This document shows positions 1,534-18,977 of a DNA stretch of 19,295 nucleotides, one piece after another (the stretch's first letter is position 1; each line of letters opens with the position of its first letter). The notes below the pieces were generated by a model that did no database searches, was not told where the DNA came from, and saw nothing but the letters and a program-made list of their open reading frames with translations. Origin of the DNA: a virus (lineage: Duplodnaviria > Heunggongvirae > Uroviricota > Caudoviricetes); IMG/VR virus record IMGVR_UViG_2563366887_000005, positions 1-19,295 of that record; one strand, given 5' to 3'. The position numbers were made by a program, and so were the translations under genes.

Positions 1534-1597
1534 ACGCGTAATACAATGAAATAAAAGGATTTATTTCTGGTCACGTCCACACATTGACCACATCGAC

Positions 1598-1621
1598 AAA
1601 AAAGCCCCTCGACTGAGGGGC
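1598..1621 (-). terminator. Rho-independent terminator downstream of ogr
   Basis: Hairpin GCCCCTC-GACT-GAGGGGC with an A-run on the + strand (a U-run on the - strand) immediately 3' of the ogr stop. Confidence 0.6.
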
Positions 1622-1634
1622 TTCCTGTTTGTAA

Positions 1635-1853: not shown

Positions 1854-1934
1854 CGCGAGCACCTCTTCCGGTTTTGTTGATGGTGCCATTTTAGTTAATT
1901 TATCCTTATAAAACAAACAGATAAAATAAAAACA

Positions 1935-3098: not shown

Positions 3099-3577
3099 TA
3101 TCCCGCCCCCGTCATACCCGTGAATTTAGTCGCCATACTGCCAGCCTTACCGATGAGCGATTCTGCCTGTTTACCGATATCGCCATAAAGCGCGGCCAGT
3201 GATTCATCCACGCGGGTGAGCGACAGCGTAAAATCAATTTTCCGGGGTGTGCCGTCTGCAAAGAAAATACTCCCTGTTTCACTCACCCTGCTGATGACAT
3301 ACATGCCGTAAATCATGCCGGTGCCATCCAGCAACGGCCACGCCCGGCCTTCCTCTGCCATCAGCCTGAGCGTGGTCATCGTCAGCTTCCCGCCGGTCAG
3401 TTCGGGATAAAGCACGCCGGCAAGCGTCATGTTTTCCTCACCCACACCGAGAAACTGGTAGGCATCCCGTTTACCGATACGGGAATTTGACGGCCAGCGA
3501 TAATCTGATTCACGCTGCATGGTCTGGTGTGGCAGCGTCTGGCGCATAAAAACAAACATACCTAACGCGAGCATCAT
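3098..3577 (-). CDS. U: P2 gpU-like tail protein, 159 aa
   Basis: 159-aa ORF with a strong SD (GGAGG) upstream; order T-U-D as in P2. Confidence 0.9.
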   Translation of the reverse strand: MMLALGMFVFMRQTLPHQTMQRESDYRWPSNSRIGKRDAYQFLGVGEENMTLAGVLYPELTGGKLTMTTLRLMAEEGRAWPLLDGTGMIYGMYVISRVSETGSIFFADGTPRKIDFTLSLTRVDESLAALYGDIGKQAESLIGKAGSMATKFTGMTGAG

Positions 3578-3591
3578 TTTTCGTCACCTCC

Positions 3592-5991
3592 TTAACCGTC
3601 ATGCATCATGCTGGCACGGGCGCGCGCACGTTTATCCCGCTCGTATTTTTCGAGCGCATCCTGTAACTGGCGGTCAAGCTGTGTCCCCGGCGCAGTACCA
3701 CCCGTCAGGCTGATGTGATATTCGTTTTTACTCTGGTCCACATAAGAGCGGCCAGCCGGTGCCGTGACCGGCTGATAAACCTGATAGCCTGCATAAGAGC
3801 TGGTCGCCGGAATATAACCACCGCTGCCATACGTGGCGGCTTGAGTTCTGGCGGCGGTCTGGTCAAGTGTGTCTGACTCTTTGTTGATAACACCGAGTTT
3901 TTCCAGTACCCAGTCAATACCGCTGCGCAGTTTGTTGAACGCATTAAGCGGCAGCATCAACGCGTCAGCCAGTGCCTGCCCGAACATGACACCCGTGTCA
4001 CGGCAACGGTTCAGGGTGTCCTGGGTGGCTTTGACGGGGGCAATCAGGTTTTTAAACCACTGCCACGCGGCCTGTAACTTTTCACCCAGCCAGTCAAACA
4101 GCGGCTTAAGTGGCGTGAACAGTTCCCCCACCGGCGCAAATGCCGCTTTCAGCCCTTCCACCACACCGCCAAAGAATGCGCTGACAGGCTCCCAGTATTT
4201 ACGGATAAGCAACGCCCCGGCGACAATTGCAGCCACCACGGCCACAACCGGCCAGCTAATCGCCCCGATGGCCGTCATAACGGCACTACCAACCGTCGTG
4301 AAGATTGCCCCCATTGCGCCTGCTGCCGCGATGATGGCATTGATGCCAGTGATAACCGGCCAGGCTACAAGACCAATTGCACCGATGATGCCAGTAAGCG
4401 CCAGCGCGCCACCGGCAATGATGCCAATGGTTGACGCCAGTGATTTGTTTTTCTGGATCCAGCCGTCGAGTTTTAACACATACTTTGTGGCCGTCTGTGT
4501 GAGCTTACGCAGTGCGCCTTCCTGCTGGTCAAACAGGTCTGTCCCCACCGCCTCATAAGCGGACTGAAACTCCTTAAAGTCACCGCCGAGGTTGTCCTGC
4601 ATGATATTTACCAGCTCGGCAGTCTTCCCGTCTGAGGCTTTAAACGCAGCGGTCAGTTTGTCCAGCTTTCCGGTTGAGGCGGCAGTCATCAGCACGGCAG
4701 CGGCTGAGCTGGCCTCCTCCCCGAAAATAGTTTTCATGTATTCAGCCTGCTGGGCAGTACCGAGCCGGTTTTTCTCAAAACTGGCCTGCATTTCTTTCAG
4801 AATGGTAAATATTGGCCGGGTGTTTCCTTTGCTGTCTGAGGTTTTCACTCCAAGCTCTTTGAGTGCATCCCATGCTTTTCCCGTCGGTGCCTGCAGGCGG
4901 CTTAACACGGCACGGCTTCCCGTCCCCGCCATTGAGCCTGTGATTTTTGCATCATGCAGCGCCCCGACCATTGCGGCGGTTTCTTCAATGCTGACACCGG
5001 CATTTTTTGCCACAGGTGCGGCATAGGTCAGCGCATCGCTCATGCCGTCAAAATCGGCGGCGGTTTTGTTCATCGTCATGGAGAGGACATCCCCGATATG
5101 AGCGACCTTATCGTTTGAAAGCTGAAAGGCGGATTTCATCCCCATCAGCAGGGCGGCGTTTTCTTCCATTGTGCGACGGTTCGCCAGCGCCATATTCAGC
5201 GTGACCGGCGTTGCCGCCTGAATGGCATCAACATCCCCACCGGCTTTCGCAATAATAATCTGCGCACCGGCTGCATCATCTGCCGAGGCTGCGGTATTGT
5301 CGCCGAGCTGGCGCGCCTGCTTGCGTAGTGCAGCCATTTCGGCGGAGTCTTTTGCCACACCGAGCACAGCCTGCAATTCTGAGTTTTTCTGCGCAAACTC
5401 ATAACCGGGCATCAGCAGCTTAACTCCGGCCATCGTTCCCGCCGCCGCAATCCCCACACCGGCAGCGCCCACTGAGGCCATATTTCCGGCCAGTTCCTTT
5501 CCGGCCTGATAACGCTGTTTTACTGCGTTAAGTTTTGCCTGTTGTGCACTGACACGCGCCAGTGCGTCACGCTGACGGTTAAGCTGTGCGGTGGTTTCAC
5601 TGATACGGTTTTTCAGTCCCTGCTCATCATGTGCAAGATTGCGGGTATTAATTCCCACAGCGGCCAGTTCCCGCTGCTGGCGTTTAACGGAGTCCGTCAG
5701 GCGGTTATATTTCGCCTGTAAGTCCTCCGCCGCACGCTTTGCGGATTCGCGCAGTTCCTCAACCAGAATGACCAGATGCCGCATACTACGCCCCAGCCTG
5801 TCCAGCTTCCAGACTACCAGAGTGTCACCTGCTGATAATGTTCTGAGCAGTTTTTTCAGCCCCGGCCTGTCGGACTTCGTGCCGCTGATTTTGTCCTCAA
5901 AAATCAGCTCACATCCTGCGCACTCCAGCGCATTACGCTGCAATTCCGTGTTCTGGTCATTTGTTGACACGCGTACATAGCCAATAAGCAT
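3592..5991 (-). CDS. T: Chimeric ORF: tail tape-measure protein (gpT-like, N-terminus missing) fused in frame to the first ~82 codons of a serine DNA invertase gene
   Basis: C-terminal ~700 aa show tape-measure features (long Ala/Gln-rich helical region, Gly/Ala-rich hydrophobic stretch IGIIAGGALALTGIIGAIGLVAWPV...). N-terminal MLIGYVRVSTNDQNTELQRNALECAGCELIFEDK...TLVVWKLDRLGRSMRHLVILVEELRE is a Pin/Gin/Hin-type resolvase catalytic domain. Junction estimated near 5745. Confidence 0.75.
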   Translation of the reverse strand: MLIGYVRVSTNDQNTELQRNALECAGCELIFEDKISGTKSDRPGLKKLLRTLSAGDTLVVWKLDRLGRSMRHLVILVEELRESAKRAAEDLQAKYNRLTDSVKRQQRELAAVGINTRNLAHDEQGLKNRISETTAQLNRQRDALARVSAQQAKLNAVKQRYQAGKELAGNMASVGAAGVGIAAAGTMAGVKLLMPGYEFAQKNSELQAVLGVAKDSAEMAALRKQARQLGDNTAASADDAAGAQIIIAKAGGDVDAIQAATPVTLNMALANRRTMEENAALLMGMKSAFQLSNDKVAHIGDVLSMTMNKTAADFDGMSDALTYAAPVAKNAGVSIEETAAMVGALHDAKITGSMAGTGSRAVLSRLQAPTGKAWDALKELGVKTSDSKGNTRPIFTILKEMQASFEKNRLGTAQQAEYMKTIFGEEASSAAAVLMTAASTGKLDKLTAAFKASDGKTAELVNIMQDNLGGDFKEFQSAYEAVGTDLFDQQEGALRKLTQTATKYVLKLDGWIQKNKSLASTIGIIAGGALALTGIIGAIGLVAWPVITGINAIIAAAGAMGAIFTTVGSAVMTAIGAISWPVVAVVAAIVAGALLIRKYWEPVSAFFGGVVEGLKAAFAPVGELFTPLKPLFDWLGEKLQAAWQWFKNLIAPVKATQDTLNRCRDTGVMFGQALADALMLPLNAFNKLRSGIDWVLEKLGVINKESDTLDQTAARTQAATYGSGGYIPATSSYAGYQVYQPVTAPAGRSYVDQSKNEYHISLTGGTAPGTQLDRQLQDALEKYERDKRARARASMMHDG
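5746..5991 (-). pseudogene. Serine DNA invertase (Pin/Gin/Hin/Cin family) 5' fragment; C-terminal HTH DNA-binding domain deleted
   Basis: The catalytic-Ser motif YVRVST is present, but the ORF switches to tape-measure sequence after ...LVEELRE; no invertase C-terminal domain is found anywhere in the window. Confidence 0.75.
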
Positions 5992-6058
5992 GATCATCCC
6001 CCTGAATAAAAACCGGGGATGATGCCAGTTAGCCATTATCTCTGCATTTTCATAAACG

Positions 6059-6092
6059 TTGGTTTGGGAGAAGCGGCAAAACGGAATGTAGG
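6059..6092. repeat. Inverted repeat, left arm (34 bp crossover site of the invertible tail-fibre segment)
   Basis: TTGGTTTGGGAGAAGCGGCAAAACGGAATGTAGG is the exact reverse complement of 7606-7639; encodes the conserved [10 protein letters not shown] junction peptide in both orientations. Confidence 0.8.
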
Positions 6093-6426
6093 TAACGGGC
6101 AAAACCAAATTCCGGATATGGCGGCGTTTGCCAGTTCACTTTCATCAACGGGTTTTCAAAAACTTCCTTCAGGTCTGATTATTCAGTGGGGTATTGTCAG
6201 TGGAGCATCAAACTATACGGTGACTTACCCGGTAACATTCCCAAATCGTTCACTTGCGCTGTTGGCTGTGCCACATACAACGTCGGTGGCTGGTATATCT
6301 GCAATGGGCATAGCGAACTGTTCTGATATCAGCAAATCACAGTTCTATATAATTGTTGGCGGTATATCTCAGGGAAAAATTGTCAAATATGAAAGGTCCT
6401 GTTTTTGGGTAGCAATCGGTGTATAG
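6059..6426 (+). CDS. Alternative tail-fibre C-terminal (variable) domain in the silent orientation (Sv'); no promoter or constant region of its own
   Basis: Shares the [20 protein letters not shown] junction and KLPxGxIxQWG pattern with the opposing 7266-7760 ORF; the reading frame begins inside the inverted repeat. Confidence 0.6.
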
Positions 6427-6434
6427 GTATATCT

Positions 6435-6830
6435 ATGATTTATTTCTCAAAATCGACTAATGGTTTTTTCTTTGATGGTATAAACAGCGACATGCCTGCT
6501 GACATTGTTGAGATAAGTACAGACTTATACAATGAATTAATTGCCGGACAGCAGGAAGGGGGTAAATTAATCACGTCAGATGAAAATGGTTTACCGGTAC
6601 TGAAATCTCCGGCGATTGATTATGTCGCACGTGCTGAAAATCAGCGAATGCAGTTACTTGCTCATGCCGATAATGTCACAGCTGACTGGCGGGTGGAATT
6701 AATGCTTGGTGATATCAGCAGTACAGATAAAGAAAAACTATCTGCCTGGATGGACTACAAAAAAGAAGTAAAAGCCGTCGACACTTCGACGGCTCCTGAG
6801 ATTAGCTGGCCTGAGTTACCGGAGGTGTAG
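6435..6830 (+). CDS. Tail-fibre assembly chaperone (Tfa, gpG/U'-like)
   Basis: Translation MIYFSKSTNGFFFDGINSDMPADIVEISTDLYNEL... has the typical Tfa N-terminus; start taken at ATG 6435 rather than the upstream TTG. Confidence 0.75.
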   Translation: MIYFSKSTNGFFFDGINSDMPADIVEISTDLYNELIAGQQEGGKLITSDENGLPVLKSPAIDYVARAENQRMQLLAHADNVTADWRVELMLGDISSTDKEKLSAWMDYKKEVKAVDTSTAPEISWPELPEV

Positions 6831-7245
6831 GCCATTCAATATCTGGAGCACTGGAGGTATCCACCAGTTCCAGTGCGTCCAGGTAATCCAGCCACAAATT
6901 ATATTGCGCCAGTTCCTCACCTTTCAGACGACCAATAGCTGATTTGCCAGGCCATTGCTTACTGTTCATGTATTCGTTAGCCTGGTTAATTAGTAGCTGT
7001 TTTTCTGATTCAGTAATTTCAATAAGCTCTTCATACGTGGGTGGAGGAATATCTGCCCACGCAGGCAGCCCATCATCTCCGGCAATACGGATTTTTCCTT
7101 GTGGCGGTTCAGCCATAAACTCACTGATAATATTTTGATTTACTTCCTTTGCGTCTGATAAATCCCATCCCTCTGATTTATATTTATCAATCATATCCAC
7201 AGGGAAAAAAGCATTATGCCTTGCGCTATAAACATATTCGTTCAT
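6802..7245 (-). CDS. Tail-fibre assembly chaperone (Tfa, gpG/U-like), partner of the currently expressed fibre C-terminus
   Basis: Translation MNEYVYSARHNAFFPVDMIDKYKSEGWDL...; convergent with the other Tfa, 3' ends overlapping. Confidence 0.75.
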   Translation of the reverse strand: MNEYVYSARHNAFFPVDMIDKYKSEGWDLSDAKEVNQNIISEFMAEPPQGKIRIAGDDGLPAWADIPPPTYEELIEITESEKQLLINQANEYMNSKQWPGKSAIGRLKGEELAQYNLWLDYLDALELVDTSSAPDIEWPTPPVTQAS

Positions 7246-7265
7246 ATAAATCACCCTGAATAAAA

Positions 7266-7760
7266 TTACTCACCAACAGCCCACCAACTGTAATTCATCG
7301 ATACTGTGGAGCTGGTTGATGCAGTTCTGTAAGCGGAATTAAAACCGGTTAGTGTTGGACCTTCTGCAGTCATCACGAATCCCCGTCCAGCGCCTAAAGG
7401 CGCACCACCATCACCAGAATGGGTAAGCATGGCGCAGTCCACTTCTTTAGGAAAAGGGATGCTGAATGTAATTCTCATTGTTTGCGTCGATAATGTCGGC
7501 GTAATCGCACCACGACCATATTGCAGGATTTTCCCGTTGGGTAATTTCATCCATCCATCACCACTGGCAAAAGAGGTCATGTCCGGTATCTGATTTTCCC
7601 CTGTTCCTACATTCCGTTTTGCCGCTTCTCCCAAACCAAGGTATGCGAGAAGACCAGCTACATCCTTTCCACTCAAATTAGTCAGCGTATTGTCCAGCGG
7701 TTGTTTACCTGCCAGCGCATTAAGCATTGTCGTGGCAAAGTTCGGATCGAGGAGCTGCAA
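7266..7760 (-). pseudogene. Tail-fibre protein (gpH-like) 3' fragment: short constant-region remnant plus variable C-terminal domain (Sv); most of the gene deleted
   Basis: The ORF runs through the right inverted repeat ([21 protein letters not shown]) but has only about 40 codons upstream of it before meeting terminase P sequence on the opposite strand. Confidence 0.65.
7606..7639. repeat. Inverted repeat, right arm (34 bp crossover site)
   Basis: Exact reverse complement of 6059-6092. Confidence 0.8.
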
Positions 7761-8378
7761 CGCTGCATGGTCGACACGCTGGAAGAATGGGAAGACTATG
7801 CGCCGTTTGCCACCAATCCGTTCGGCTCACGTCCGGTATGGATTGGTTACGACCCGTCACACCGTGGCGACAGCGCCGGATGCGTGGTACTGGCACCGCC
7901 GGTGGTGGCCGGTGGCAAATTCAGGATCCTTGAGCGTCACCAGTGGAAAGGCATGGACTTTGCCACCCAGGCAGAATCCATCCGCAAACTCACCGAAAAA
8001 TATAACGTTGAATACATCGGTATTGATGCCACCGGCCTCGGTGTCGGTGTGTTCCAGCTCGTGCGCTCGTTCTATCCCGCCGCTCGCGATATCCGCTACA
8101 CGCCGGAAATGAAAACCGCAATGGTCCTCAAGGCAAAAGACGTCATCCGCCGTGGCTGTCTGGAATATGACGTCAGCGCCACCGACATCACCAGCTCGTT
8201 TATGGCTATCCGCAAGACCATGACCAGCAGCGGACGCAGCGCCACCTATGAGGCCAGCCGCAGCGAGGAAGCCAGCCACGCCGACCTCGCCTGGGCGACC
8301 ATGCACGCTCTGTTAAATGAGCCACTCACCGCCGGTATCAGCACCCCGCTGACATCCACCATTCTGGAGTTTTACTGA
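7701..8378 (+). pseudogene. P: Terminase large subunit (gpP-like) C-terminal fragment; 5' two-thirds deleted
   Basis: The ORF ends 1 nt into the portal gene start (TGATG overlap), matching the P-Q operon arrangement, but only about 225 codons remain where P2 P is about 590 aa. The 5' boundary is uncertain (junction somewhere in 7640-7760). Confidence 0.7.
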
Positions 8379-9412
8379 TGAGCAAGAAAAAAAGGAAAAC
8401 ACCGCAACCTGCGGCAAAAAAAATGACCGCCAGCGCCCCGAAAATGGAGGCATTCACCTTTGGTGAGCCGGTGCCGGTACTCGACCGCCGTGACATTCTG
8501 GATTACGTCGAATGCATCAGTAACGGCAGATGGTATGAGCCACCAATCAGCTTTACCGGTCTGGCAAAAAGCCTGCGTGCTGCCGTGCATCACAGCTCAC
8601 CGATTTACGTCAAACGCAATATTCTGGCTTCAACGTTTATCCCGCACCCGTGGCTGTCCCAGCAGGATTTCAGCCGCTTTGTGCTGGATTTTCTGGTGTT
8701 CGGTAATGCGTTTCTGGAAAAGCGTTACAGCACCACTGGTAAGGTCATCAGACTGGAAACCTCACCGGCAAAATATACCCGCCGTGGTGTGGAAGAGGAT
8801 GTTTACTGGTGGGTGCCGTCCTTCAACGAGCCGACAGCCTTCGCGCCCGGCTCCGTGTTTCACCTGCTGGAGCCGGATATTAATCAGGAGCTGTACGGCC
8901 TGCCGGAATATCTCAGCGCCCTTAATTCTGCCTGGCTGAATGAGTCGGCCACGCTGTTTCGCCGCAAGTATTACGAAAACGGCGCTCATGCCGGATACAT
9001 CATGTACGTCACCGATGCCGTGCAGGATCGCAACGATATCGAAATGCTTCGCGAAAACATGGTGAAGTCAAAAGGCCGCAATAACTTTAAAAATCTGTTT
9101 CTCTATGCCCCGCAGGGGAAAGCCGACGGCATTAAAATTATCCCCCTCAGTGAAGTGGCAACGAAAGACGATTTTTTTAATATCAAAAAAGCCAGCGCCG
9201 CTGACCTGCTGGACGCGCACCGCATCCCCTTTCAGTTGATGGGCGGCAAGCCGGAGAACGTCGGGTCGCTGGGTGATATTGAGAAAGTGGCAAAGGTCTT
9301 TGTCCGCAATGAGCTTATCCCGTTACAGGACAGGATCCGCGAGATAAACGGCTGGCTTGGTCAGGAGGTCATCCGCTTTAAAAACTACTCACTGGACACT
9401 GACAACGGTTGA
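8378..9412 (+). CDS. Q: Portal protein (gpQ-like), 344 aa
   Basis: Full-length 344-aa ORF immediately upstream of cos, as in P2; basic N-terminus MSKKKRKTPQPAAKK. Confidence 0.85.
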   Translation: MSKKKRKTPQPAAKKMTASAPKMEAFTFGEPVPVLDRRDILDYVECISNGRWYEPPISFTGLAKSLRAAVHHSSPIYVKRNILASTFIPHPWLSQQDFSRFVLDFLVFGNAFLEKRYSTTGKVIRLETSPAKYTRRGVEEDVYWWVPSFNEPTAFAPGSVFHLLEPDINQELYGLPEYLSALNSAWLNESATLFRRKYYENGAHAGYIMYVTDAVQDRNDIEMLRENMVKSKGRNNFKNLFLYAPQGKADGIKIIPLSEVATKDDFFNIKKASAADLLDAHRIPFQLMGGKPENVGSLGDIEKVAKVFVRNELIPLQDRIREINGWLGQEVIRFKNYSLDTDNG

Positions 9413-9417
9413 ACATC

Positions 9418-9439
9418 GCCGCCTGCGGGCGGCTTTTTT
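9418..9439 (+). terminator. Rho-independent terminator after Q
   Basis: GCCGCC-TGCG-GGCGGC hairpin followed by TTTTTT. Confidence 0.7.
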
Positions 9440-9581
9440 ACAGCCCGTCATCACGCCCTCACACGCTCACCACCGTACAAAACATCCCGCAGACACACCA
9501 ACACCCCAACGGGCACACTAAACGCCGCCACGACGCGCTCAGACGCTGAAAAAATAAAATCAGCACCACCGCCAGCGCGCA

Positions 9582-9600
9582 GTGCTTTCCCCGCCTCGCC
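9582..9600. other. cos site (19-nt cohesive-end sequence GTGCTTTCCCCGCCTCGCC, reverse complement of the P2/P4 cos GGCGAGGCGGGGAAAGCAC)
   Basis: Exact match to the P2 cohesive end as I recall it, located about 170 bp past the Q stop in the expected orientation. Confidence 0.75.
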
Positions 9601-9838
9601 CGCCCGCTTCATGGGGCGATTTTAATGCAGTGGCATGATTTAGCCGAATCCGCGCCATTGTTGACATTGATGTTTTGATATGGATATGGCGTAAGCATGC
9701 GAATTCATTCAAGATGATGCAAGAATGATGAAATTATGGTACAGATCGATTAGCCATAATATGCCCCACGTTGTTACATGTGGTTCATAAGAGTTATGGC
9801 TCATAGGGATTTATACAAAATATATATAGGTAATTATC

Positions 9839-10903
9839 ATGTCAGGTGAAACTCAAAATATTTCAGCAATGGCAGAAAAAATATCTTCAGACCTATTCAA
9901 ATGGTTTAAGTGGGAACTCGTTGGTCCAACCAATGAAAACTTTCCATGCATGAAAAAAGATCAACATAAAACACTAGCCGGAACACATCCAACTGATGTT
10001 GTATTTTCTTATAAAGATCCCTATTTGAATAGAACTATTTTTTTAAATACTGATTTAAAAAGCTATATTAAAGGCTCAATTACAGCAACTAAAATGCGCA
10101 ATGCTTTAGTATCTCTGGCTAATTCTATTGACTGTGCTCAAGGTTGTAAAGAATGGAAGGAGCGTTATTCTTATAAAAATGGTGCATCAGAAGTCAGAGG
10201 CATGCTCTTTGTATACAACCATGACGGAGACTTTGACCAATCTTTTTATGATGTATTCTATCAATCTCACAATACTGAAACTGATAAGAAGAAAAGAGGT
10301 ATTAATCTTGACAATATACCGGTAAGAGCCGGTCAAAAAATACACATCATTGAACCAAGAACTATAAACTACTTGCAGTCAATAATCTGCGATTTATCAC
10401 AACTAAGCCACAAAAGAGAGTTTCCACTCGGTAAAAAATATCAATTCTTTTACCCAGACCTTTCACTACATAAAGTAAGCGGTTCGCCCGAAGAACTTCC
10501 AGCAACTGTAGAATTATTGACAGGCCCATTCCTTATTATAAAACATAATGACGTCAGACATTGCAATGAAGAAACATCACAATGGGAAACTACATTTAAA
10601 CATGGTTACATTATTTATTACAATGGCGAAGGAAAAAACGAGCTAGAGTTTATTTATATTCTAGACACGCTATCTAAATATCAATTACTAGATGGCAATG
10701 AAAATATAAGAATTAGAATAGTTAACCCTAACATACATAAAGATGTTCGCAGTATTTTTATGCGTGCGAAGGATAGTTATTGTCAAGAATGGGGGTTCGA
10801 TGAACATAAAAAAACGATAATAGATGCTATTGATTTTCAACAGGTAGAATTTACAAAGCCTCGTTTTAGTTCGGTAGAGATTGGTTGGGAGCGACAGGCA
10901 TGA
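9839..10903 (+). CDS. Hypothetical protein, 354 aa; first gene of the hotspot cassette; possible N-terminal PD-(D/E)xK-like nuclease motif (D53 ... D72-L-K74)
   Basis: Long ORF in an A+T-rich island; no resemblance to any P2 protein I know; stop overlaps the next start (ATGA). The motif assignment is from visual inspection only. Confidence 0.7.
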   Translation: MSGETQNISAMAEKISSDLFKWFKWELVGPTNENFPCMKKDQHKTLAGTHPTDVVFSYKDPYLNRTIFLNTDLKSYIKGSITATKMRNALVSLANSIDCAQGCKEWKERYSYKNGASEVRGMLFVYNHDGDFDQSFYDVFYQSHNTETDKKKRGINLDNIPVRAGQKIHIIEPRTINYLQSIICDLSQLSHKREFPLGKKYQFFYPDLSLHKVSGSPEELPATVELLTGPFLIIKHNDVRHCNEETSQWETTFKHGYIIYYNGEGKNELEFIYILDTLSKYQLLDGNENIRIRIVNPNIHKDVRSIFMRAKDSYCQEWGFDEHKKTIIDAIDFQQVEFTKPRFSSVEIGWERQA

Positions 10904-12012
10904 AAATTGGATTATATAGTGTAAATGATAAGGCAATGTTTGACGCATTGAATCAAACTAAAGTCACTCATGAAGATATGAAAAGTCTCTTTTTTAAAAG
11001 AGGAATGATTATATCCAAAGAGACTAAACGAAAAACATTGGCTTTGGATTTTTCCAGATACTATCATGGCTATTCTGATTTTGAATTTCTTTCAAACATA
11101 CTCGGTTCTGTTGGGCGGAGAGAAAAAGTATCAATTAACATTATTAATACAAATATAGATAAAAATAGTATGGAAAATACTATTAAATCTATTTGTGAAG
11201 ATCTTCAAAAAGAAGGCGATATAACTAATATAAATTACACCGAGAATGGTTTTGAAGTATCAATCAAATATGTGAAACTAGATTTCAAAATGAGCGAGTT
11301 TCGCCAATCCTCATCACGTGAAGCCAAAATACAAGTTGAAATGAATGAAAGCGGTGAATTTATCACCCGTTTCCCTCAAAATGCTAAAGCAAGGGAATTC
11401 AACGAGCGCCTCGTGGAGAAGATCAAAGAAGACAACAATGAGGATCCAGCCAGTCTTGATGAAATTTCGCTCGAAACTGTTAAATCACCAGCGGAAAGAA
11501 GCAAGTTTTTTGAGCAACTAATCTCAAGCATACCTAACTACAAATGCATTGACGTATCGGATGTATACGTTACGCATCCAATTCTTGAGTCAAATAAGTC
11601 TAACGAAAATGAAGATGATTCTGATGATGACGATACAATTATTGACACAGGATATCATATCTCCAAAGCTTCATTAAAAGGGCGCAGCGTTCTTGACTCT
11701 CTCGAGTTTAAAGAGTTGTTAGGAAAAGGATTTTATATTACCAAAATCATTTGGAGTTCTGTTGTTGACACTTATAAAGACTCGGACAAATATGAATTCG
11801 AGGCTCAATTTGTCGACCCAGATAATTGCAAGTTATTCTCGTATATCGTTCGCGGTGTTTATAAGTACAAAAATATAAACGAATATGCAAATCGTCAAAA
11901 TGTAGATAAAGAGAAGGAAAAACTGCTATTATTAGCACTTGAAAAAACCGCTCGCGAAATTTCAAACAGTATTATCGCCTCAAACACAATTGAGGTTGTT
12001 ACTGATAAATAA
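10900..12012 (+). CDS. Hypothetical protein, 370 aa; second gene of the hotspot cassette; contains an acidic DDSDDDD stretch
   Basis: ATG at 10900 overlaps the upstream TGA (translational coupling), with GGGAG 8 nt upstream; the ORF-track start at 10885 is a TTG and is less likely. Confidence 0.7.
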   Translation: MKIGLYSVNDKAMFDALNQTKVTHEDMKSLFFKRGMIISKETKRKTLALDFSRYYHGYSDFEFLSNILGSVGRREKVSINIINTNIDKNSMENTIKSICEDLQKEGDITNINYTENGFEVSIKYVKLDFKMSEFRQSSSREAKIQVEMNESGEFITRFPQNAKAREFNERLVEKIKEDNNEDPASLDEISLETVKSPAERSKFFEQLISSIPNYKCIDVSDVYVTHPILESNKSNENEDDSDDDDTIIDTGYHISKASLKGRSVLDSLEFKELLGKGFYITKIIWSSVVDTYKDSDKYEFEAQFVDPDNCKLFSYIVRGVYKYKNINEYANRQNVDKEKEKLLLLALEKTAREISNSIIASNTIEVVTDK

Positions 12013-12023
12013 AAGGAGTTGTT

Positions 12024-12695
12024 ATGAAAACAAAATGGTTTACTGCCAACTTCCCTGCTGGACTTGATAGTTTATATCAGTCTATCATTAACACTCCTTT
12101 TGATAGTGATAAAGGCTGGGGATTTAGTATCAACTCATATGAAGAAAATGCAATATCATCTCGATACATCGAGAAAGTAGAGGTCAACGAGATAATCGTT
12201 GATCCATATGGAAACGAGACTCAATATACACAGCTAAAATATATTCAATTTAACTTTTGGCTTTACACAACAAAAGGTAAAAACTTCATCTTAATCATTG
12301 AGTCGCCTCCCAGAAGCATTAAGAACTTCATATCAAACATAATTAAATCAACACATTCTGATTTTAATGTGTCAAATCTCAACATCAAAATTGAGGACTT
12401 CATTTATTTCCTGACCCCGCACTTTGAAAAAATACAAGTGCACAAGGCAAAATTAAAAGACTTAACGTTTAGCAAACACACATCCGGCATACTGGAACTT
12501 GAGTCATCAAGTGACGCACTTATGGAAATAAGAAACATTTTCAAAAATGCAAATTTTACAATTGATAAAGTTAAACTTAATGTTAAGGATGTGACCGGTT
12601 ATGAGTCATTAGAAATTAACACAAATGGGTCCATTTCACTTTCAGAGCAAATTTTTGACAAGGTGTATCTAACCATAGAAAGATTTGCCCTTTAA
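12024..12695 (+). CDS. Hypothetical protein, 223 aa; third gene of the hotspot cassette
   Basis: Strong SD (AAGGAG) 6 nt upstream of the ATG; 11-nt gap after gene 2; followed by a terminator. Confidence 0.7.
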   Translation: MKTKWFTANFPAGLDSLYQSIINTPFDSDKGWGFSINSYEENAISSRYIEKVEVNEIIVDPYGNETQYTQLKYIQFNFWLYTTKGKNFILIIESPPRSIKNFISNIIKSTHSDFNVSNLNIKIEDFIYFLTPHFEKIQVHKAKLKDLTFSKHTSGILELESSSDALMEIRNIFKNANFTIDKVKLNVKDVTGYESLEINTNGSISLSEQIFDKVYLTIERFAL

Positions 12696-12735
12696 GTTAA
12701 CAATACAATTCAATTCTTTTGATGTAATAAAAACG

Positions 12736-12766
12736 GCCTCATTAAAAATGAGGCTTATCGTTTTAT
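12736..12766 (+). terminator. Rho-independent terminator ending the hotspot operon
   Basis: GCCTCATT-AAA-AATGAGGC hairpin followed by a T-rich tract (TTATCGTTTTATT). Confidence 0.65.
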
Positions 12767-12860
12767 TATTGTAGCCATGCCATCTGGTTTTCACCTTTTC
12801 CTCCAGCACAGTATTAATACACACCTTATATAGTTTTATCTCTTAGATATTCACACTATT

Positions 12861-15140
12861 TCAATCTATTACAGTTGTGAACCCTGGCCATCCATCAGCG
12901 ACCGGATAAGCGAATTTTTTCCCGTCATAATTTACGGTCGCGCCACGCGCCAGCGCCTCAAGCTCCCATCGCTGTGGCCTGATACCGTTCTGAGCAAGGT
13001 CAACGCGGATACGGGTAATTTGCATTCGTTCCGACCGAGTCAGTCTGGCCGATGGCGCTATTTCATGCGGTTTTAACGGGCTTCCGTTTCTTTGCTGACG
13101 GTTTGGTCTTCTCAGACCGTGTTTTAATGCACCTCTGAGCGCCCTCACGACCTCCTGGTCATTCCATTCGATAACACCGTCATCTACCAGATTAAGCACT
13201 GCTACGGCGTGTTCAGAAGGCGTGGGAGCCGGTAACGAAGTATCACCACCGGTGAGCTTTCCACAGTTATTGACAGGACTCCGAGGCGCGGCGATGCCGC
13301 TTTTTAAAGTCAAAGGCTCAACGACCGGAACTTTCGGCACAATGCGCCAGTCCGTCGTTCTGGTGATATGAATATGACGCGCGCCGAGATGCGGCGCGTA
13401 AATGCCGACCACTCTCTCGACTTCTTCCTCGTACTCGTTAACGTCATCCGACGGGCTACGGGCGACCCTGACAGTCTGACAATCGCGCGGGACATTTGCC
13501 CCGCCCTGCGCGCTGATATACAACGCAAAATCACCACTGTCTGCGGCGGCGCGTGCAGCCTCGACGCGTTCGTCAAACTCATCAGCAATGCTGACGCCGC
13601 GAGGCAATTTGCGTAGCTCACGGTAAGCCCCCATTGTCGGCAGGCCAACCGTTTTAAATTGCGGAATGCGCCACGTTGACGCCCATGCGGTAACAGCCGC
13701 GGCAGTATCTTTCAGCGGCCTGCCAGTATCGTTATCGAGCTGACCATCCAGTGCATAGCCGTCGATGTTTTTTGAGATGTATTTCGCGATATATCCCGCA
13801 GCACCGCCCCGGTTAAGGTGTTTTGCCTGAAAACGGTTTCGCGCAGCGCCTCTTTCGTCACCATCCTCTTTGAGCGCATAGCGACGCATGATTTCGATAA
13901 TCTGGTTACGCTGGCGTGGATTACAAAAAAGCATCATATGCCAGTGCGGCGTTCCGTCGTGGTGTGGCTCGACGACACGCAAACCGTAGACCTGTAAATC
14001 ATTATCCTTGAATGCCGTGCGCATCAGGCTCCAGATATGGCAGAGATAACGCTGCGCATCCTTTGGATTAAATGCCTCATCATTCCAGCCGTGATTTAGC
14101 TGGACGGTTTTACTTTCGCCTTTTCCGACCTGACGTGTCGGGTGATACTTTGACGGCGCGGTCAGCGTGATAAACATCCCCACATCACCCTCTGCGGCGG
14201 CATAACGCTCAATTCCGGCGATGGTGTTCATCAGCTCCATCCGGCGAATTTCAGGATTAGAAATACTGCCCATCACCTTACTGATAAGGTCGATGCGCTC
14301 GCCGGTTTCCCTGTTTTCAAGGTCACACGATTTAAGAAATTCCAGATTTGCCTGGCGGCGTGCACGCACATCACGAATGGCATGTTTACTGGCATAAGGA
14401 GAACGGTCTTTATTGACCTCCCCGACAGCAATCAGTAACGCCTCATGCCAGCGCATACGCTGGCCTTTAAGCTGATGAGTCCACCACTCATCGTTAAACA
14501 GACGGGCAATGGCAGAATATGCCTGCCTCGTGGTTATCTGTCCTTTACGGTATTTTTTCCAGTAGAGCGGGGAAATATTGAAAGCACGTGCAGCGCCAGC
14601 AACATGACCATACAGGTGAGTCTGCGCCTCATCCGTAAACAGCGATTCTTTTTCGCCATGTGCATCAACCCATGCATCGCAGAGTTCCTCATACATCATG
14701 AAAAGCTGCGATGAGATACGGGCGGCAAACTTTTTCAGCTCCTTGTCATTCATCCCCGGCAGGCGCGCATAGTGGTCACGCTCTGCCAGAAACAGTAACG
14801 ACGCGTCGGTGTTCATTTCATGGCGCTGATTCACGCGCTCAATGCGCGGCCATAAACGACGCTGAAAAGTGGATGTGAGGAAATAAAACCCGTGCACCGG
14901 GCTTTTATTGCGCCGGATGTAGTCATAGCGTGAAGTAAACAGCGAGCGCAAAAAGTAAGGCAGGCGGTTAATCGTGGATAAAACACCTTGCACCTGACGC
15001 ATCTCGTCACGTGTAAGGGGTCTTTCGCGCCCGACAGCCTCGCGTGGCGCGTTCCATGCATAAGCACCGGTAAACGCCTTACCGGTGCCTGCGGCAAATG
15101 CTGACGGAGGGACAAAACGCCCGGAGGCTTTAACGGCCAT
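12861..15140 (-). CDS. A: P2 gpA-like replication initiation endonuclease (rolling-circle initiator)
   Basis: Translation MAVKASGRFVPPSAFAAGTGKAFTGAYAWNAPREAVGRERPLTRDEMRQVQGVL... matches P2 A along its length as I recall it; start taken at ATG 15140 rather than the upstream TTG. Confidence 0.9.
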   Translation of the reverse strand: MAVKASGRFVPPSAFAAGTGKAFTGAYAWNAPREAVGRERPLTRDEMRQVQGVLSTINRLPYFLRSLFTSRYDYIRRNKSPVHGFYFLTSTFQRRLWPRIERVNQRHEMNTDASLLFLAERDHYARLPGMNDKELKKFAARISSQLFMMYEELCDAWVDAHGEKESLFTDEAQTHLYGHVAGAARAFNISPLYWKKYRKGQITTRQAYSAIARLFNDEWWTHQLKGQRMRWHEALLIAVGEVNKDRSPYASKHAIRDVRARRQANLEFLKSCDLENRETGERIDLISKVMGSISNPEIRRMELMNTIAGIERYAAAEGDVGMFITLTAPSKYHPTRQVGKGESKTVQLNHGWNDEAFNPKDAQRYLCHIWSLMRTAFKDNDLQVYGLRVVEPHHDGTPHWHMMLFCNPRQRNQIIEIMRRYALKEDGDERGAARNRFQAKHLNRGGAAGYIAKYISKNIDGYALDGQLDNDTGRPLKDTAAAVTAWASTWRIPQFKTVGLPTMGAYRELRKLPRGVSIADEFDERVEAARAAADSGDFALYISAQGGANVPRDCQTVRVARSPSDDVNEYEEEVERVVGIYAPHLGARHIHITRTTDWRIVPKVPVVEPLTLKSGIAAPRSPVNNCGKLTGGDTSLPAPTPSEHAVAVLNLVDDGVIEWNDQEVVRALRGALKHGLRRPNRQQRNGSPLKPHEIAPSARLTRSERMQITRIRVDLAQNGIRPQRWELEALARGATVNYDGKKFAYPVADGWPGFTTVID

Positions 15141-15405
15141 ATGAGCCAAAAGCCTCTGAACAACGCTTGCTGAGTTGCTCAACCTGCGCGTTTAAATCAG
15201 CAAAAGACTTTGCGCTTCCGGTCAGAATATCGTGATGCATCAGGCCGGAAACGAGCTGGCTTAATTTCGGGTAATAACCAACCACCGCCAGCCATTCCTG
15301 ACCGGCGTTTTTACCGCTTTCCGCTCTCTTTTTCTCGTGGAGAATAAACTGAAAGCTGTCACTGGTAACGACATAACGTTCGCCAATTTCGATACGAATA
15401 CTCAT
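15130..15405 (-). CDS. P2 Orf83-like small protein
   Basis: 91-aa ORF translationally coupled to orf82 (ATGA overlap) and abutting A; position matches the P2 orf80-83 block. Confidence 0.65.
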   Translation of the reverse strand: MSIRIEIGERYVVTSDSFQFILHEKKRAESGKNAGQEWLAVVGYYPKLSQLVSGLMHHDILTGSAKSFADLNAQVEQLSKRCSEAFGSYGR

Positions 15406-15626
15406 GCCATTCTCCGGTAATGTTTGTTTTTTGCTTCAAAGACTGACTGACAGGAAACACAACGCGTGGCTGACGGATAAGCCGCACGACGGGCAGCAGG
15501 TATTGGCGCGTCACACTCTTCGCAAACCAGCGCAGAAACACCGCAATGCTTTACCCTTGCCGCGTTAATCTGGCGCTCCAGTAATTCAGCCTTTTGTTCC
15601 TGAATAAAATCTACGTTGTCCGGCAT
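15402..15626 (-). CDS. TraR/DksA-family C4 zinc-finger protein (P2 Orf82-like)
   Basis: Translation has CEECDAPIP...CVSCQ, two CxxC pairs; 74 aa. Confidence 0.75.
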   Translation of the reverse strand: MPDNVDFIQEQKAELLERQINAARVKHCGVSALVCEECDAPIPAARRAAYPSATRCVSCQSVFEAKNKHYRRMA

Positions 15627-15928
15627 TACCAGCTCCTTTTGTCGTTCAGCTTCTTAAATTCATCAGCGCAATAGCTGGCAATTTCTGTCGTTAATTTCGT
15701 CAGTTCATCCACGGAGGAGATTTGCTTGTGAAATACAGCGCGTTTAACAAGTAAATTGACCACATCAGACAGGAGATTTAATTCGTTCTGATAAATCGCG
15801 ATAACAGACTCAGTTATTTCGCGTTTTTCTTTATCAAGACCAAGTTGAATAAGAGACAAATCACCATTTTTCATAACGGCGATTTTTAAGGCGTTATTCA
15901 GTAATACAACTGAACGAGAACAGGACAT
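15626..15928 (-). CDS. P2 Orf81-like hypothetical protein
   Basis: ORF with ATG at 15928 overlapping the upstream stop; conserved position. Confidence 0.6.
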   Translation of the reverse strand: MSCSRSVVLLNNALKIAVMKNGDLSLIQLGLDKEKREITESVIAIYQNELNLLSDVVNLLVKRAVFHKQISSVDELTKLTTEIASYCADEFKKLNDKRSW

Positions 15929-16152
15929 CAAAGCACCTCCCCGCGAGACAATCCGATATTGTGAAATTTTTCCGACTCCTGACTGAGCAGCTCGACTATC
16001 TCCACGCGGGATAACTCCGCCTTTGTGATGTGGCGAATCATGGCGTCAAGATGAGAAGAAAAGCGCGTCGCTGCGTCGGCCTGTGCTTCGGTTCTGGCCT
16101 GTTGCAGCAGTAATGCGTATTTACCGCACTGATTTTCAGAAACTGTATGCAT
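15928..16152 (-). CDS. P2 Orf80-like hypothetical protein
   Basis: ATG at 16152 with a GGAG SD; the ORF-track start (TTG at 16185) is less likely. Confidence 0.6.
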
Positions 16153-16215
16153 GACTTTCTCCAGGCAAAAAGAAGCCCCGCACAATTAAGTGCGTTAAAA
16201 ACTCTGGTTAATTAC

Positions 16216-16716
16216 TTAATGCAGATATTGCTCTGGTTTTACCGACGTCAGAATTGTCGGTGCATACTCAAACAGACTGAATAATTCACGTAATGCACGG
16301 AATAAAGCATCACGCCAGTAACATGACTCTTCATTAATTCGCCAGTATGGCTGGTTGAATTCTTTTTCAGTCAATCCGGCATGCATAAATAAAGTACGGC
16401 GCTGACTGACAGTTAAAAAGCTAATATATGCATACTCACTTGCACCGACCTGACGGCGTTTTGAGAATGCACCACGCAATTCATCAATTGCACAAACCAG
16501 TCGTTCACGTTCGACGTCGTTCATTTCTTCAAAACGCATCGTTGCGTGACGCTGTTTTAACTGCGCATGAAAGCAAACCGTTAGCCGTTCGCGTTCCATC
16601 ATCTGATTATAATAATCGCATGTCTCCTGCCAGCGAGGGACGGCCAGATGCTTACCAATTATCCGGCGCATAGTTGCTGGCTGTTTTTCAACAAGATTGA
16701 GCGTCATCACTGTCAT
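16216..16716 (-). CDS. B: P2 gpB-like replication protein (helicase loader), 166 aa
   Basis: 166-aa ORF, MTVMTLNLVEKQPATMRRIIGKHLAVPRWQETCDYYNQ...; position between cox/orf78 and orf80. Confidence 0.85.
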   Translation of the reverse strand: MTVMTLNLVEKQPATMRRIIGKHLAVPRWQETCDYYNQMMERERLTVCFHAQLKQRHATMRFEEMNDVERERLVCAIDELRGAFSKRRQVGASEYAYISFLTVSQRRTLFMHAGLTEKEFNQPYWRINEESCYWRDALFRALRELFSLFEYAPTILTSVKPEQYLH

Positions 16717-16883
16717 TTCCAGAACCTCCGGCTTTTCAGAAAGGTCAGAGCCTTCTTTAACGGACTCTGTTTTTTGGTGCGGATAATGATTCCCTTACGC
16801 CCCTTACCGTGGGTAATGGTGAAGTCAATCGCCCTGGGGCTTTCGTTACGCAGTAACTGAGCAATACAACGAGGCTCATTCAT
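16713..16883 (-). CDS. P2 Orf78-like small protein
   Basis: Small ORF from ATG 16883, stop overlapping the B start; the ORF-track start at 16907 is GTG. Confidence 0.55.
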   Translation of the reverse strand: MNEPRCIAQLLRNESPRAIDFTITHGKGRKGIIIRTKKQSPLKKALTFLKSRRFWK

Positions 16884-16893
16884 ACGGTTCTCC

Positions 16894-17169
16894 TTAACGT
16901 GGTTCACCGAGACCTAACCACATCAACCAGCCGTCACGAATCTCTTTAGGGCGGCTTTCATAAGCCAGTTTTAGTCCGTTATTCCATGCCGGAAGGTATA
17001 CCCAATATTCACCTGCACGACCTGAAGCTGATTGTGGATCGGTCATATCAATTACAGGCAGCTTTCCTTTATCGATCATCCGACGAACCGCTCCTGTCGA
17101 TTTTCCTATTAGTTTTGCGAACTCCTGATAAGGAATCGCATCAGTCATGAGTGTTACTTGCTTGCTCAT
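16894..17169 (-). CDS. cox: Cox (excisionase / directionality factor and Pc repressor), 91 aa
   Basis: 91-aa ORF divergent from C, MSKQVTLMTDAIPYQEFAKLIGKSTGAVRRMIDKGKLPV... with an HTH. Confidence 0.85.
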   Translation of the reverse strand: MSKQVTLMTDAIPYQEFAKLIGKSTGAVRRMIDKGKLPVIDMTDPQSASGRAGEYWVYLPAWNNGLKLAYESRPKEIRDGWLMWLGLGEPR

Positions 17170-17283
17170 GTCGTCCTCCAGCCCTCATGAATTGCGTTTA
17201 ATGCCTTATAATGCCTTTTAGTGCCCACATCCAAGCACTAAACAATCTACATCTAAACTGAATACTATTGAGATCTAAACACC
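17170..17283. promoter_or_regulatory. Early control region: face-to-face Pe/Pc promoters and C operators between cox and C
   Basis: Divergent cox/C arrangement as in P2; individual promoter and operator elements not resolved. Confidence 0.5.
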
Positions 17284-17583
17284 ATGTCAAACACGATAAG
17301 CGAGAAGATAGTCTTAATGCGAAAATCTGAGTATTTGAGCAGACAACAACTTGCTGATTTAACAGGGGTTCCGTATGGCACGCTGAGTTACTATGAAAGT
17401 GGTCGTTCAACACCTCCAACAGATGTCATGATGAACATCCTGCAGACCCCACAATTCACCAAATACACTTTATGGTTCATGACCAATCAGATCGCTCCTG
17501 AGTCCGGGCAAATTGCGCCCGCTCTCGCACACTTTGGGCAAAACGAAACAACGTCGCCCCACTCCGGTCAAAAGACTGGTTAA
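17284..17583 (+). CDS. C: Immunity repressor C, 99 aa
   Basis: 99-aa ORF with an N-terminal HTH (LSRQQLADLTGVPYGTLSYYESGRSTP). Confidence 0.85.
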   Translation: MSNTISEKIVLMRKSEYLSRQQLADLTGVPYGTLSYYESGRSTPPTDVMMNILQTPQFTKYTLWFMTNQIAPESGQIAPALAHFGQNETTSPHSGQKTG

Positions 17584-17698
17584 CAATTCATCGTGAATAT
17601 ATTCATCACAAGTGCCTACTATTGGTGGCTAAATTTCAGCCACCACGAAAAAAGCGATTAGTAGTCGCAAAAAAACACACCACTCGGAGGGTTTTCTG

Positions 17699-18712
17699 AT
17701 GGCAATCAAAAAACTCGATGATGGTCGATATGAAGTGGACATCCGCCCTACTGGACGTAACGGAAAACGCATCCGTAGGAAGTTTGATAAGAAAAGCGAA
17801 GCTGTCGCTTTCGAGAAATACACGTTGTACAACCACCACAATAAAGAATGGCTATCAAAACCAACAGACAAGCGACGTCTGTCGGAGCTGACACAGATCT
17901 GGTGGGATTTAAAGGGTAAACACGAAGAGCATGGGAAATCTAATCTTGGAAAAATTGAAATCTTCACAAAAATAACGAATGACCCATGCGCATTTCAAAT
18001 TACGAAATCGCTTATCAGCCAGTACTGCGCCACCCGAAGAAGTCAGGGTATTAAACCTTCGAGTATCAATCGTGATTTAACATGTATTAGCGGCATGTTT
18101 ACAGCCCTGATTGAAGCGGAGTTATTCTTTGGTGAGCACCCTATCAGAGGGACAAAAAGGCTTAAGGAGGAAAAACCAGACACAGGCTATCTCACGCAGG
18201 AAGAAATTGCCTTACTGCTTGCTGCTCTTGACGGCGACAACAAAAAGATTGCGATTCTTTGCCTGAGTACTGGAGCACGTTGGGGAGAAGCAGCTCGTTT
18301 GAAAGCAGAAAATATCATCCATAACCGCGTCACGTTTGTTAAAACGAAAACAAACAAACCACGCACCGTCCCGATCTCAGAGGCTGTTGCCAAAATGATC
18401 GCGGATAACAAACGAGGTTTTTTATTCCCTGATGCTGATTACCCTCGCTTCAGACGAACAATGAAAGCAATAAAACCGGATTTGCCAATGGGGCAAGCCA
18501 CACATGCACTAAGGCACAGCTTTGCCACTCATTTCATGATTAATGGAGGAAGTATTATCACGCTACAACGGATACTAGGTCACACGCGGATTGAGCAAAC
18601 TATGGTTTACGCTCATTTTGCGCCAGAGTACCTTCAGGACGCCATTTCTCTTAATCCGCTAAGAGGTGGTACTGAGGCCGAGAGTGTCCACACAGTGTCC
18701 ACAGTAGAGTAA
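17699..18712 (+). CDS. int: Tyrosine integrase (P2 Int-like), 337 aa
   Basis: 337 aa; C-terminal HALRHSFATHF...GHTRIEQTMVYAHF (catalytic R-H-R-Y box); SD GGAGGG upstream; adjacent to attR. Confidence 0.9.
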   Translation: MAIKKLDDGRYEVDIRPTGRNGKRIRRKFDKKSEAVAFEKYTLYNHHNKEWLSKPTDKRRLSELTQIWWDLKGKHEEHGKSNLGKIEIFTKITNDPCAFQITKSLISQYCATRRSQGIKPSSINRDLTCISGMFTALIEAELFFGEHPIRGTKRLKEEKPDTGYLTQEEIALLLAALDGDNKKIAILCLSTGARWGEAARLKAENIIHNRVTFVKTKTNKPRTVPISEAVAKMIADNKRGFLFPDADYPRFRRTMKAIKPDLPMGQATHALRHSFATHFMINGGSIITLQRILGHTRIEQTMVYAHFAPEYLQDAISLNPLRGGTEAESVHTVSTVE

Positions 18713-18791
18713 CGTTTAAGGGCTTTCAGTGGTAATTTATGCCGCTCAAACCCGCATTGTACCGTTGAAAGCCCCTACTGGTGACACCCTA

Positions 18792-18818
18792 AATCTCCCT
18801 TACACGGGCTTATTTTTT
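18792..18818. repeat. attR core (27 bp), direct repeat of 1507-1533
   Basis: Identical 27-mer AATCTCCCTTACACGGGCTTATTTTTT. Confidence 0.85.
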
Positions 18819-18977
18819 TATGCATAAGCCCTATCTCTGGTAACCGTCTTCCATTGACCACATCGATAGAATCCTCCTTCATAGCACGATGCCTTTCACT
18901 TATCGGCATCGTGCTCCCACAGGTTCCGGCTACGCACAGCCAGAACGCGCATATTTGACGCTTACCAAAAAATATTC

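Follow-up and report, generated by a model that had tools for sequence, protein, structure and literature searches.

A cassette of three linked genes, termed Hp1, Hp2 and Hp3 in the order of transcription, separates the cos site from replication gene A in a degraded P2-like prophage of IMG/VR record IMGVR_UViG_2563366887_000005, of which positions 1 to 19,295 were analysed (the window; feature coordinates are given in Table 1). The cassette is almost certainly a divergent subtype of 3HP, an anti-phage system of P2-like prophages. Profile comparisons relate its first two proteins to GAPS4a and GAPS4b, the nuclease and partner of the GAPS4 defence system, and the predicted structures of the second and third resemble that of RdgC. 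These observations suggest, with a probability of roughly 0.6, that 3HP is a three-component, DNA-sensing DNase of the GAPS4 type, which would act by abortive infection and include an added RdgC-fold subunit.

Each of the three proteins matches the corresponding PADLOC model over near its full length (Hp1, PDLC03004, E 2e-63; Hp2, PDLC03005, E 4e-37; Hp3, PDLC03006, E 5e-8), these being matches to individual family models and not to the system rules of PADLOC or DefenseFinder. Among the eight P2-hotspot cargoes cloned by Rousset et al., the one in plasmid pFR109, taken from E. coli E1114 and described as 'hp + hp + hp' (protein sequences in Table S2A), confers protection against P1 only, one of eight phages (Rousset et al., 2022; PMC9122126). 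Later literature names the system 3HP and credits this study. BLASTP aligns the window proteins collinearly with the three pFR109 proteins, at 35% identity for the first (E 1e-67), 31% for the second (E 2e-39) and 19% for the third (E 1e-10, a weak match); gene order and the P2 hotspot are shared, and the pFR109 proteins are 333, 359 and 227 residues long versus 354, 370 and 223 residues here. Because identity to the pFR109 proteins is this low, we regard the window cassette as a distinct subtype, the one that is common in E. coli and Salmonella. A cassette 99.2% identical to that of the window has as its three coding sequences WP_024160514, WP_001398851 and WP_032238998, which Table S5 of the same study lists together as a 'hypothetical x3' P2 cargo (PMC9122126). 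In a Vibrio phage record, a homologous triad is annotated Rst_3HP__Hp1, Rst_3HP__Hp2 and Rst_3HP__Hp3.

General annotation resources are less informative about the cassette. Searching the three proteins against Pfam and NCBIfam returned sub-threshold noise only, PHROGs gave strong matches to families of unknown function, and RefSeq mostly labels the proteins hypothetical. Megablast of the cassette against sequenced phages gave just a 39-nt match on the cos side, and the pFR109 entries were not found in the HHpred table of Rousset et al. (PMC9122126). The old/tin/orf91 genes of P2 occupy the same cos-to-A slot and have the same role of prophage-borne defence cargo, without a sequence relationship to the cassette; neither Old (an OLD-family ATPase-nuclease) nor Tin was matched in PADLOC, Pfam or NCBIfam, PADLOC giving the Hp1, Hp2 and Hp3 models only. 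A first-pass annotation, made from the sequence of the window, had likewise seen no resemblance to Old or Tin, and its proposal of a candidate anti-phage cargo agrees with the hotspot location and with the homology to the experimentally validated pFR109 system. The same annotation had called the operon unrecognised and potentially novel, naming confident homology to a characterised defence system as one result that would overturn this. Such homology is found with the pFR109 3HP, and the cassette is therefore not an unrecognised system: the PADLOC matches and the Table S5 listing point the same way, and the system as such is already known, 3HP having been found and tested in 2022 and being picked up by standard defence-annotation tools.

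GAPS4 was discovered in the GMT islands of Vibrio (Mahata et al., bioRxiv 10.1101/2023.03.28.534373). The homing endonucleases bas24_0090 and T7 gp3.8 attenuate it. According to a later preprint, GAPS4a is a PD-(D/E)xK protein with an HGxD...SxK site in which the aspartate is essential, GAPS4b is required, and both assemble into a 164-kDa 2:2 complex, for which an AlphaFold3 model places GAPS4a on helical domains of a GAPS4b ring; the system is abortive, acting on host and phage DNA as a non-selective DNase that responds to DNA breaks, with nalidixic acid and a type VI secretion system DNase (PoNe) as triggers (bioRxiv 10.1101/2025.09.07.674715).

Hp1 contains a motif of the PD-(D/E)xK type, H50-P51-x-D53 ... 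D72-x-K74, and across 121 family members conservation reaches 95% or more at H50, P51 and D53 and at every position of the stretch N70-T71-D72-L73-K74-S75-Y76. The first-pass statement that no known signature is visible in the cassette is thus wrong. Homologues of Hp1 carry the precomputed Pfam assignment PF26115 (PDDEXK_GAPS4), and RefSeq calls one of them a PD-(D/E)XK nuclease, although PF26115 was not returned for Hp1 itself by the Pfam copy that was scanned. The sequences of GAPS4a-RiKo and GAPS4b-RiKo used for comparison were transcribed from the AlphaFold3 model file of the preprint, with more GAPS4a sequences taken from its File S1; the GAPS4b transcription is confirmed by a plasmid gene of 94% identity. 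By BLASTP the match of Hp1 to GAPS4a-RiKo is collinear and marginal (E 0.055), and the Hp1 family hidden Markov model (HMM) scores GAPS4a-RiKo at 25.6 bits, the maximum in 400 shuffles being 5.0. Alignment with hhalign of a profile to a single sequence gave a probability of 94.5–94.6% in both directions, and of profile to profile 97.5% (E 8e-12) over 243 columns, with the catalytic H-x-x-D and x-K positions aligned; a search of the Hp1 profile against PDB sequences yielded nothing useful. As judged from these profiles, Hp1 is clearly a homologue, over about 240 residues that include the catalytic site, of the GAPS4a PD-(D/E)xK nuclease and is the predicted effector of 3HP, with a predicted active site that reads HPxD...DxK in place of the HGxD...SxK of GAPS4a.

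Detection of the relationship between Hp2 and GAPS4b depended on the depth of the profiles. A first Hp2 profile (Neff, the effective sequence number, 3.3) aligned to one to four GAPS4b sequences at an hhalign probability of 0.3–6% only, and tblastn of GAPS4b against plasmids gave two near-identical matches only. The Hp2 family was then represented by 150 diverse members out of 616 representatives at 50% clustering (exhaustive profile search), and GAPS4b by the gene immediately downstream of GAPS4a in 15 GAPS4 loci, obtained by scanning viral and genome collections with a GAPS4a alignment. With the resulting 149-sequence profile, hhalign of Hp2 against 11 diverse GAPS4b sequences gave a probability of 96.8% (E 2.7e-10) over 252 collinear columns, compared with 0.2% for Hp1 against GAPS4b, 0.3% for Hp2 against GAPS4a, 0.9% for Hp2 against reversed GAPS4b, and at most 1.6% for Hp2 against 20 column-shuffled GAPS4b profiles. 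The Hp2 HMM (HMMER, against the 519 open reading frames [ORFs] of the fetched loci) recovers the GAPS4b ORF in 12 of the 15 GAPS4 loci (E 9e-11 to 2e-4), and within these loci the Hp1 and Hp2 HMMs select the GAPS4a and GAPS4b ORFs only. On this evidence Hp2 is a GAPS4b homologue over about 250 residues and the predicted partner of the nuclease.

GAPS4 and 3HP share gene order, overlap-style coupling and protein sizes, and Hp2 lies directly downstream of Hp1 as GAPS4b does of GAPS4a. The families are nevertheless far apart (cross-family HMM E 1e-11 to 4e-3), and the cassette departs from the two-gene GAPS4 layout (a and b, or a fusion of both) in having a conserved third gene. In each 3HP locus examined this gene is recovered by the Hp3 profile (E 1e-27 to 1e-40), whereas an Hp3-like ORF is found in 0 of the 15 GAPS4 loci (best E 3.4). 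GAPS4-RiKo, like 3HP, is borne by what looks like a P2-like phage: in IMGVR_UViG_2579779007_000009 this experimentally studied pair (4001–6074) is located between a tail-fibre assembly-like ORF and an FI-tail-sheath-like ORF, a position that would be P2 Z/fun, the other variable slot. At another GAPS4 locus the pair adjoins an integrase-like ORF; this ORF and the neighbours of the GAPS4-RiKo pair were assigned by reading the ORFs, not by family search. Two GAPS4 loci have a short GAPS4b ORF (278 and 298 residues) with a small ORF behind it, which may reflect a frameshift or truncation of the gene or else a sequencing error in the draft assembly. A search of the available literature found no paper that mentions GAPS4 together with 3HP, or that links 3HP with RdgC, and because no paper was found naming GAPS4 and 3HP together, the homology of Hp1 and Hp2 to GAPS4 and the RdgC-fold assignment appear to be new annotations.

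Confident AlphaFold2 single-chain models of Hp2 (predicted local distance difference test [pLDDT] 83.7, predicted template modelling [pTM] score 0.73) and Hp3 (pLDDT 91.4, pTM 0.84) both resemble E. coli RdgC, a recombination-associated protein and ring-forming DNA binder (PDB 2OWL). The predicted Hp2 comprises an N-terminal 4-helix domain and an RdgC/CENP-L-like body, and the predicted fold of Hp3 is that of Hp2 without the N-terminal docking domain. The likeness of both proteins to RdgC and to the Iml3/CENP-L–Chl4/CENP-N pair of kinetochore proteins is one of predicted structure, without sequence similarity; Hp2 differs from RdgC by its extra helical domain, and DNA binding and ring formation, described for RdgC, are proposed for Hp2 and Hp3. 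RdgC dimers are rings with a basic pore in which DNA is bound, and RdgC inhibits RecA functions, Iml3–Chl4 forms DNA-contacting heterodimers, and the prophage exclusion protein RexA of phage lambda also has the RdgC fold (lambda RexA structure paper). In structure the 3HP proteins resemble RexA far less closely than they do RdgC itself, and the RexAB effector is the membrane protein RexB, whereas the predicted effector of 3HP is a nuclease. Hp3 as a detectable sequence paralogue of Hp2, or as a split-off piece of GAPS4, was considered and rejected at the sequence level, there being no signal against Hp2, Hp1, GAPS4a or GAPS4b.

The mechanism that we propose combines homologies, architecture and predicted folds from the present analysis with the P1 protection, the GAPS4 complex and its triggers from the literature; that 3HP works in the same mode as GAPS4, and the role given to Hp3, are inferred. 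Hp1 would be a PD-(D/E)xK DNase held by Hp2, docking on the N-terminal helical domain of the latter. The RdgC-like body of Hp2, alone or with Hp3, would bind or encircle DNA as a ring or clamp, and Hp3, which has the predicted RdgC fold as well, would join Hp2 to make the DNA-binding assembly whole or else serve as its gate. Abnormal DNA arising from infection, such as free ends or breaks, would activate the complex, and the activated Hp1 would degrade phage and host DNA alike, aborting the infection. As a tentative refinement, which we think possible without favouring it, 3HP may be a three-subunit elaboration of GAPS4 in which an Hp2–Hp3 hetero-assembly replaces or gates the homodimeric GAPS4b ring, much as Iml3–Chl4 takes the place of the RdgC homodimer. 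If so, the DNA state that is sensed would be changed, and the much narrower phage range of 3HP would be explained.

Several points weigh against the proposed mechanism. The mechanism of GAPS4 is itself known from a preprint, and the defence by 3HP was measured on the pFR109 homologue, at the low identities given above, not on the window variant. The tested 3HP is active on P1 only of eight phages, versus a broad range for GAPS4-RiKo, so that the triggers of the two systems may differ. BLASTP of Hp2 against GAPS4b finds no match, and the homology of the two needs rich profiles, RiKo-type GAPS4b alone scoring 4.5 bits. With respect to the folds, these are predictions on single chains; RdgC is not among the top 50 Foldseek matches of Hp2, for which the Iml3 and CENP-N folds were matched weakly (E 1.7e-3, TM 0.24–0.35); neither Hp2 nor Hp3 has a Pfam match, the RdgC model included, at E up to 1; and no similarity in sequence is detectable between Hp2 and Hp3. 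The fold does not imply the sensing of DNA ends, since the title of a reference in the lambda RexA structure paper reports RdgC on circular DNA too. Finally, the region upstream of gene 1 yielded no convincing sigma-70 promoter; the closest candidate (9 of 12 positions, 9812–9840) lies in A+T-rich DNA, where matches of this kind are common.

The main alternative gives Hp3 another role. Hp1–Hp2 might be a constitutively competent GAPS4-type nuclease and Hp3 its brake, either an antitoxin-like inhibitor or a DNA mimic-like RdgC-fold decoy, that is removed or titrated by a phage cue; the trigger would therefore be a phage product and not DNA breaks. Such a brake would account for the much narrower phage range of the tested 3HP compared with GAPS4, and is consistent with Hp3 being the sole part absent from two-gene GAPS4, with its predicted Hp2-like fold lacking the docking domain, and with the position of its gene, last in the operon and translationally coupled via a strong Shine-Dalgarno sequence. 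However, there is no evidence that Hp1 and Hp2 by themselves are toxic, Hp3 is conserved as strictly as a structural subunit, and the known proteins with RdgC/Iml3 folds are DNA-binding dimer partners, not inhibitors. We consider a brake function rather unlikely.

Less probable again is a nuclease that recognises incoming phage DNA (by its ends, or as replication or recombination intermediates) and destroys that DNA only, leaving the cell to survive. GAPS4 does degrade incoming lambda DNA as well, a fall in viability was not seen with it at low multiplicity of infection, and the PD-(D/E)xK effectors of Shedu and Hachiman are directed at DNA in particular states. However, GAPS4 degrades host DNA, and viability falls about 40-fold when the multiplicity of infection is 5, and the cassette holds no methyltransferase that could mark self DNA (PADLOC, Pfam and NCBIfam scans); selective targeting is improbable by comparison with the abortive DNase proposed above. 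It is very improbable that the window variant has no defence role, as either a DNA-metabolism module beneficial to the phage (for example RdgC-like modulation of RecA plus a recombination nuclease) or a functionless passenger of a prophage in decay: RdgC does inhibit RecA functions, the prophage is defective and the measured defence is that of a homologue, but the three genes are intact and under purifying selection, the homologue does defend, the slot is exchanged among defence cargoes, and the triad travels on unrelated mobile elements without attached phage replication genes. A previously unrecognised, novel system, to which the absence of significant matches in the Pfam and NCBIfam copies used and the 'hypothetical' RefSeq labels might have pointed, is scarcely credible given the PADLOC models, the validated homologue and the published table of P2 cargoes.

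Table 1. Cassette genes, associated signals and flanking hotspot features in the window
Feature	Position	Strand	Description
Portal gene Q	8378–9412	+	Pfam Phage_portal; conserved left hotspot flank
P2 cos cohesive-end 19-mer (GGCGAGGCGGGGAAAGCAC)	9582–9600	-	Exact match; left hotspot boundary
A+T-rich leader 5' of gene 1	9640–9838	+	G+C falls here; presumed native promoter region
Gene 1 / Hp1	9839–10903	+	354 aa; GAPS4a-like PD-(D/E)xK nuclease, predicted effector
Gene 2 / Hp2	10900–12012	+	370 aa from ATG; GAPS4b-like partner, predicted DNA-binding sensor or scaffold
Gene 3 / Hp3	12024–12695	+	223 aa; predicted RdgC/Iml3/CENP-L fold; 3HP-specific
Terminator-like hairpin, bidirectional	12735–12755	both	9-bp stem and T-rich tail on each strand; closes the cassette, faces gene A
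Replication endonuclease gene A	12861–15182	-	Pfam Phage_GPA, E 2e-124; conserved right hotspot flank

The layout of the cassette is as the first-pass annotation had described it. The ORF coordinates give three linked genes on one strand, with an ATGA overlap (10900–10903) at the junction of genes 1 and 2, a spacer of 11 nt that includes AAGGAG, a Shine-Dalgarno sequence, between genes 2 and 3, and a hairpin that closes the unit; the open frame of gene 2 extends upstream of its ATG to a TTG at 10885. The A+T-richness of the cassette relative to its flanks is likewise borne out (G+C 0.339, versus 0.525 for Q and 0.534 for A). An Rfam scan gave no match inside the cassette.

The position of the cassette between cos and gene A, also claimed at first pass, is confirmed: the P2 cos 19-mer had 0 matches in 200 shuffles, and the same cos sequence borders the cloned P2 hotspot inserts (Rousset et al., 2022, Table S2A; PMC9122126). 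The window is E. coli DNA from the yegQ-yegR site. A Pfam scan of the window places, from left to right after yegQ/trhP (1–1362), gpD, gpU, the tape-measure gene, tail-fibre pairs, terminase P and portal Q (the equivalents of which are named 'phage portal protein' in RefSeq) and, to the right of gene A, DUF5405 and TraR-type genes, cox, a C-type repressor and the integrase. The site occupied by the prophage is that at which E. coli K-12 has the ogrK/yegZ P2 remnant. That the prophage is degraded, as had been proposed, is evident from terminase P, of which the C-terminal half alone is left (7701–8378), from the scan detecting no capsid, lysis or baseplate genes in the prophage, and from the truncated tape-measure gene, the N-terminus of which is replaced by a resolvase N-terminal domain.

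The ORF concerned encodes 838 residues (3592–6108, minus strand), with the resolvase/invertase N-terminal domain at residues 41–121 and the tape-measure domain at residues 261–462. It looks like a deletion junction at which FI, FII, E and the start of T have been lost and a tail-fibre DNA invertase has been fused to gpT. The region 6019–7760 (G+C about 0.42) contains two inverted Gp53-like_C tail-fibre C-terminal tips, each with a Caudo_TAP assembly gene, directly adjoining the terminase P half-gene, and looks like an invertible host-range segment beside the truncated invertase. A CyaR/RyeE small RNA gene (Rfam RF00112, 100.7 bits) is present at 1445–1530 on the plus strand, between yegQ/trhP and the ogr-side end of the prophage.

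Of 5,426 complete E. coli genomes, 10 carry the cassette; the exact arrangement of the window is found in no complete genome of the searched collection. Strain 1409 has the cassette in the Q–A interval of a P2-like prophage that is intact and sits at a different site. A sibling degraded prophage in E. coli PE15 (NZ_CP041628.1) occupies the same yegQ-yegR site, with flanks about 98% identical to those of the window and a different internal deletion. Its Q–A slot (8959–11118 of the locus) holds another three-gene cargo on the opposite strand, encoding a hypothetical protein of 220 residues, a DUF4325 protein and a hypothetical protein of 376 residues, and its gene A is annotated as incomplete. 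With siblings at one site carrying different Q–A cargoes, the swapping of cargo that the first-pass annotation described for this interval is therefore seen directly. The reading of the cassette as an anti-phage cargo that reached the P2 cos-to-A hotspot by horizontal transfer is supported.

The triad architecture is kept in loci from Vibrio, Marinobacterium and a metagenome that are 36–40% identical to that of the window; a Klebsiella Peduoviridae phage has the triad in the same portal-to-A slot, and a Vibrio temperate phage also carries it. Its vehicles include an unusual one, Pseudomonas phage 99-2 (OR621024.1), a 13.5-kb filamentous phage (Tubulavirales) in which a complete 3HP-like triad of 359, 364 and 229 residues (1402–4299) adjoins a repressor and an excisionase. 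In Vibrio parahaemolyticus (JANFRQ010000099.1, 2141–5761), an Endonuclease_1 gene precedes the triad, and the flanking genes are RecT/SSB to one side and TraN to the other; 3HP therefore also travels on a conjugative element.

Relative to the lineage with 99.2% identity, the codon changes comprise 22 synonymous and 2 non-synonymous, which indicates purifying selection on the gene family. The first-pass suggestion that retention in a decayed prophage reflects selection on the cargo itself is therefore plausible for the family. For this particular remnant, the cassette may simply be young, because its proteins are identical to those encoded by the copy that strain 1409 has in an intact prophage.

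3HP has hitherto been listed as 'mechanism unknown, no predicted domains', and the tie of two of its three proteins to GAPS4, with the RdgC-fold assignment of Hp2 and Hp3, leads to specific predictions: D53, D72 and K74 would be catalytic, nalidixic acid would sensitise cells with the cassette, and the proteins would form a complex. If the reading of 3HP as a GAPS4 elaboration with an Hp2–Hp3 hetero-assembly is right, it would provide a testable model for 3HP and would point to a wider clade of defence nucleases with RdgC-fold DNA sensors, of which lambda RexA would be a distant cousin. The relationship suggests that GAPS4 and 3HP belong to one superfamily, repeatedly carried in both of the P2 hotspots.

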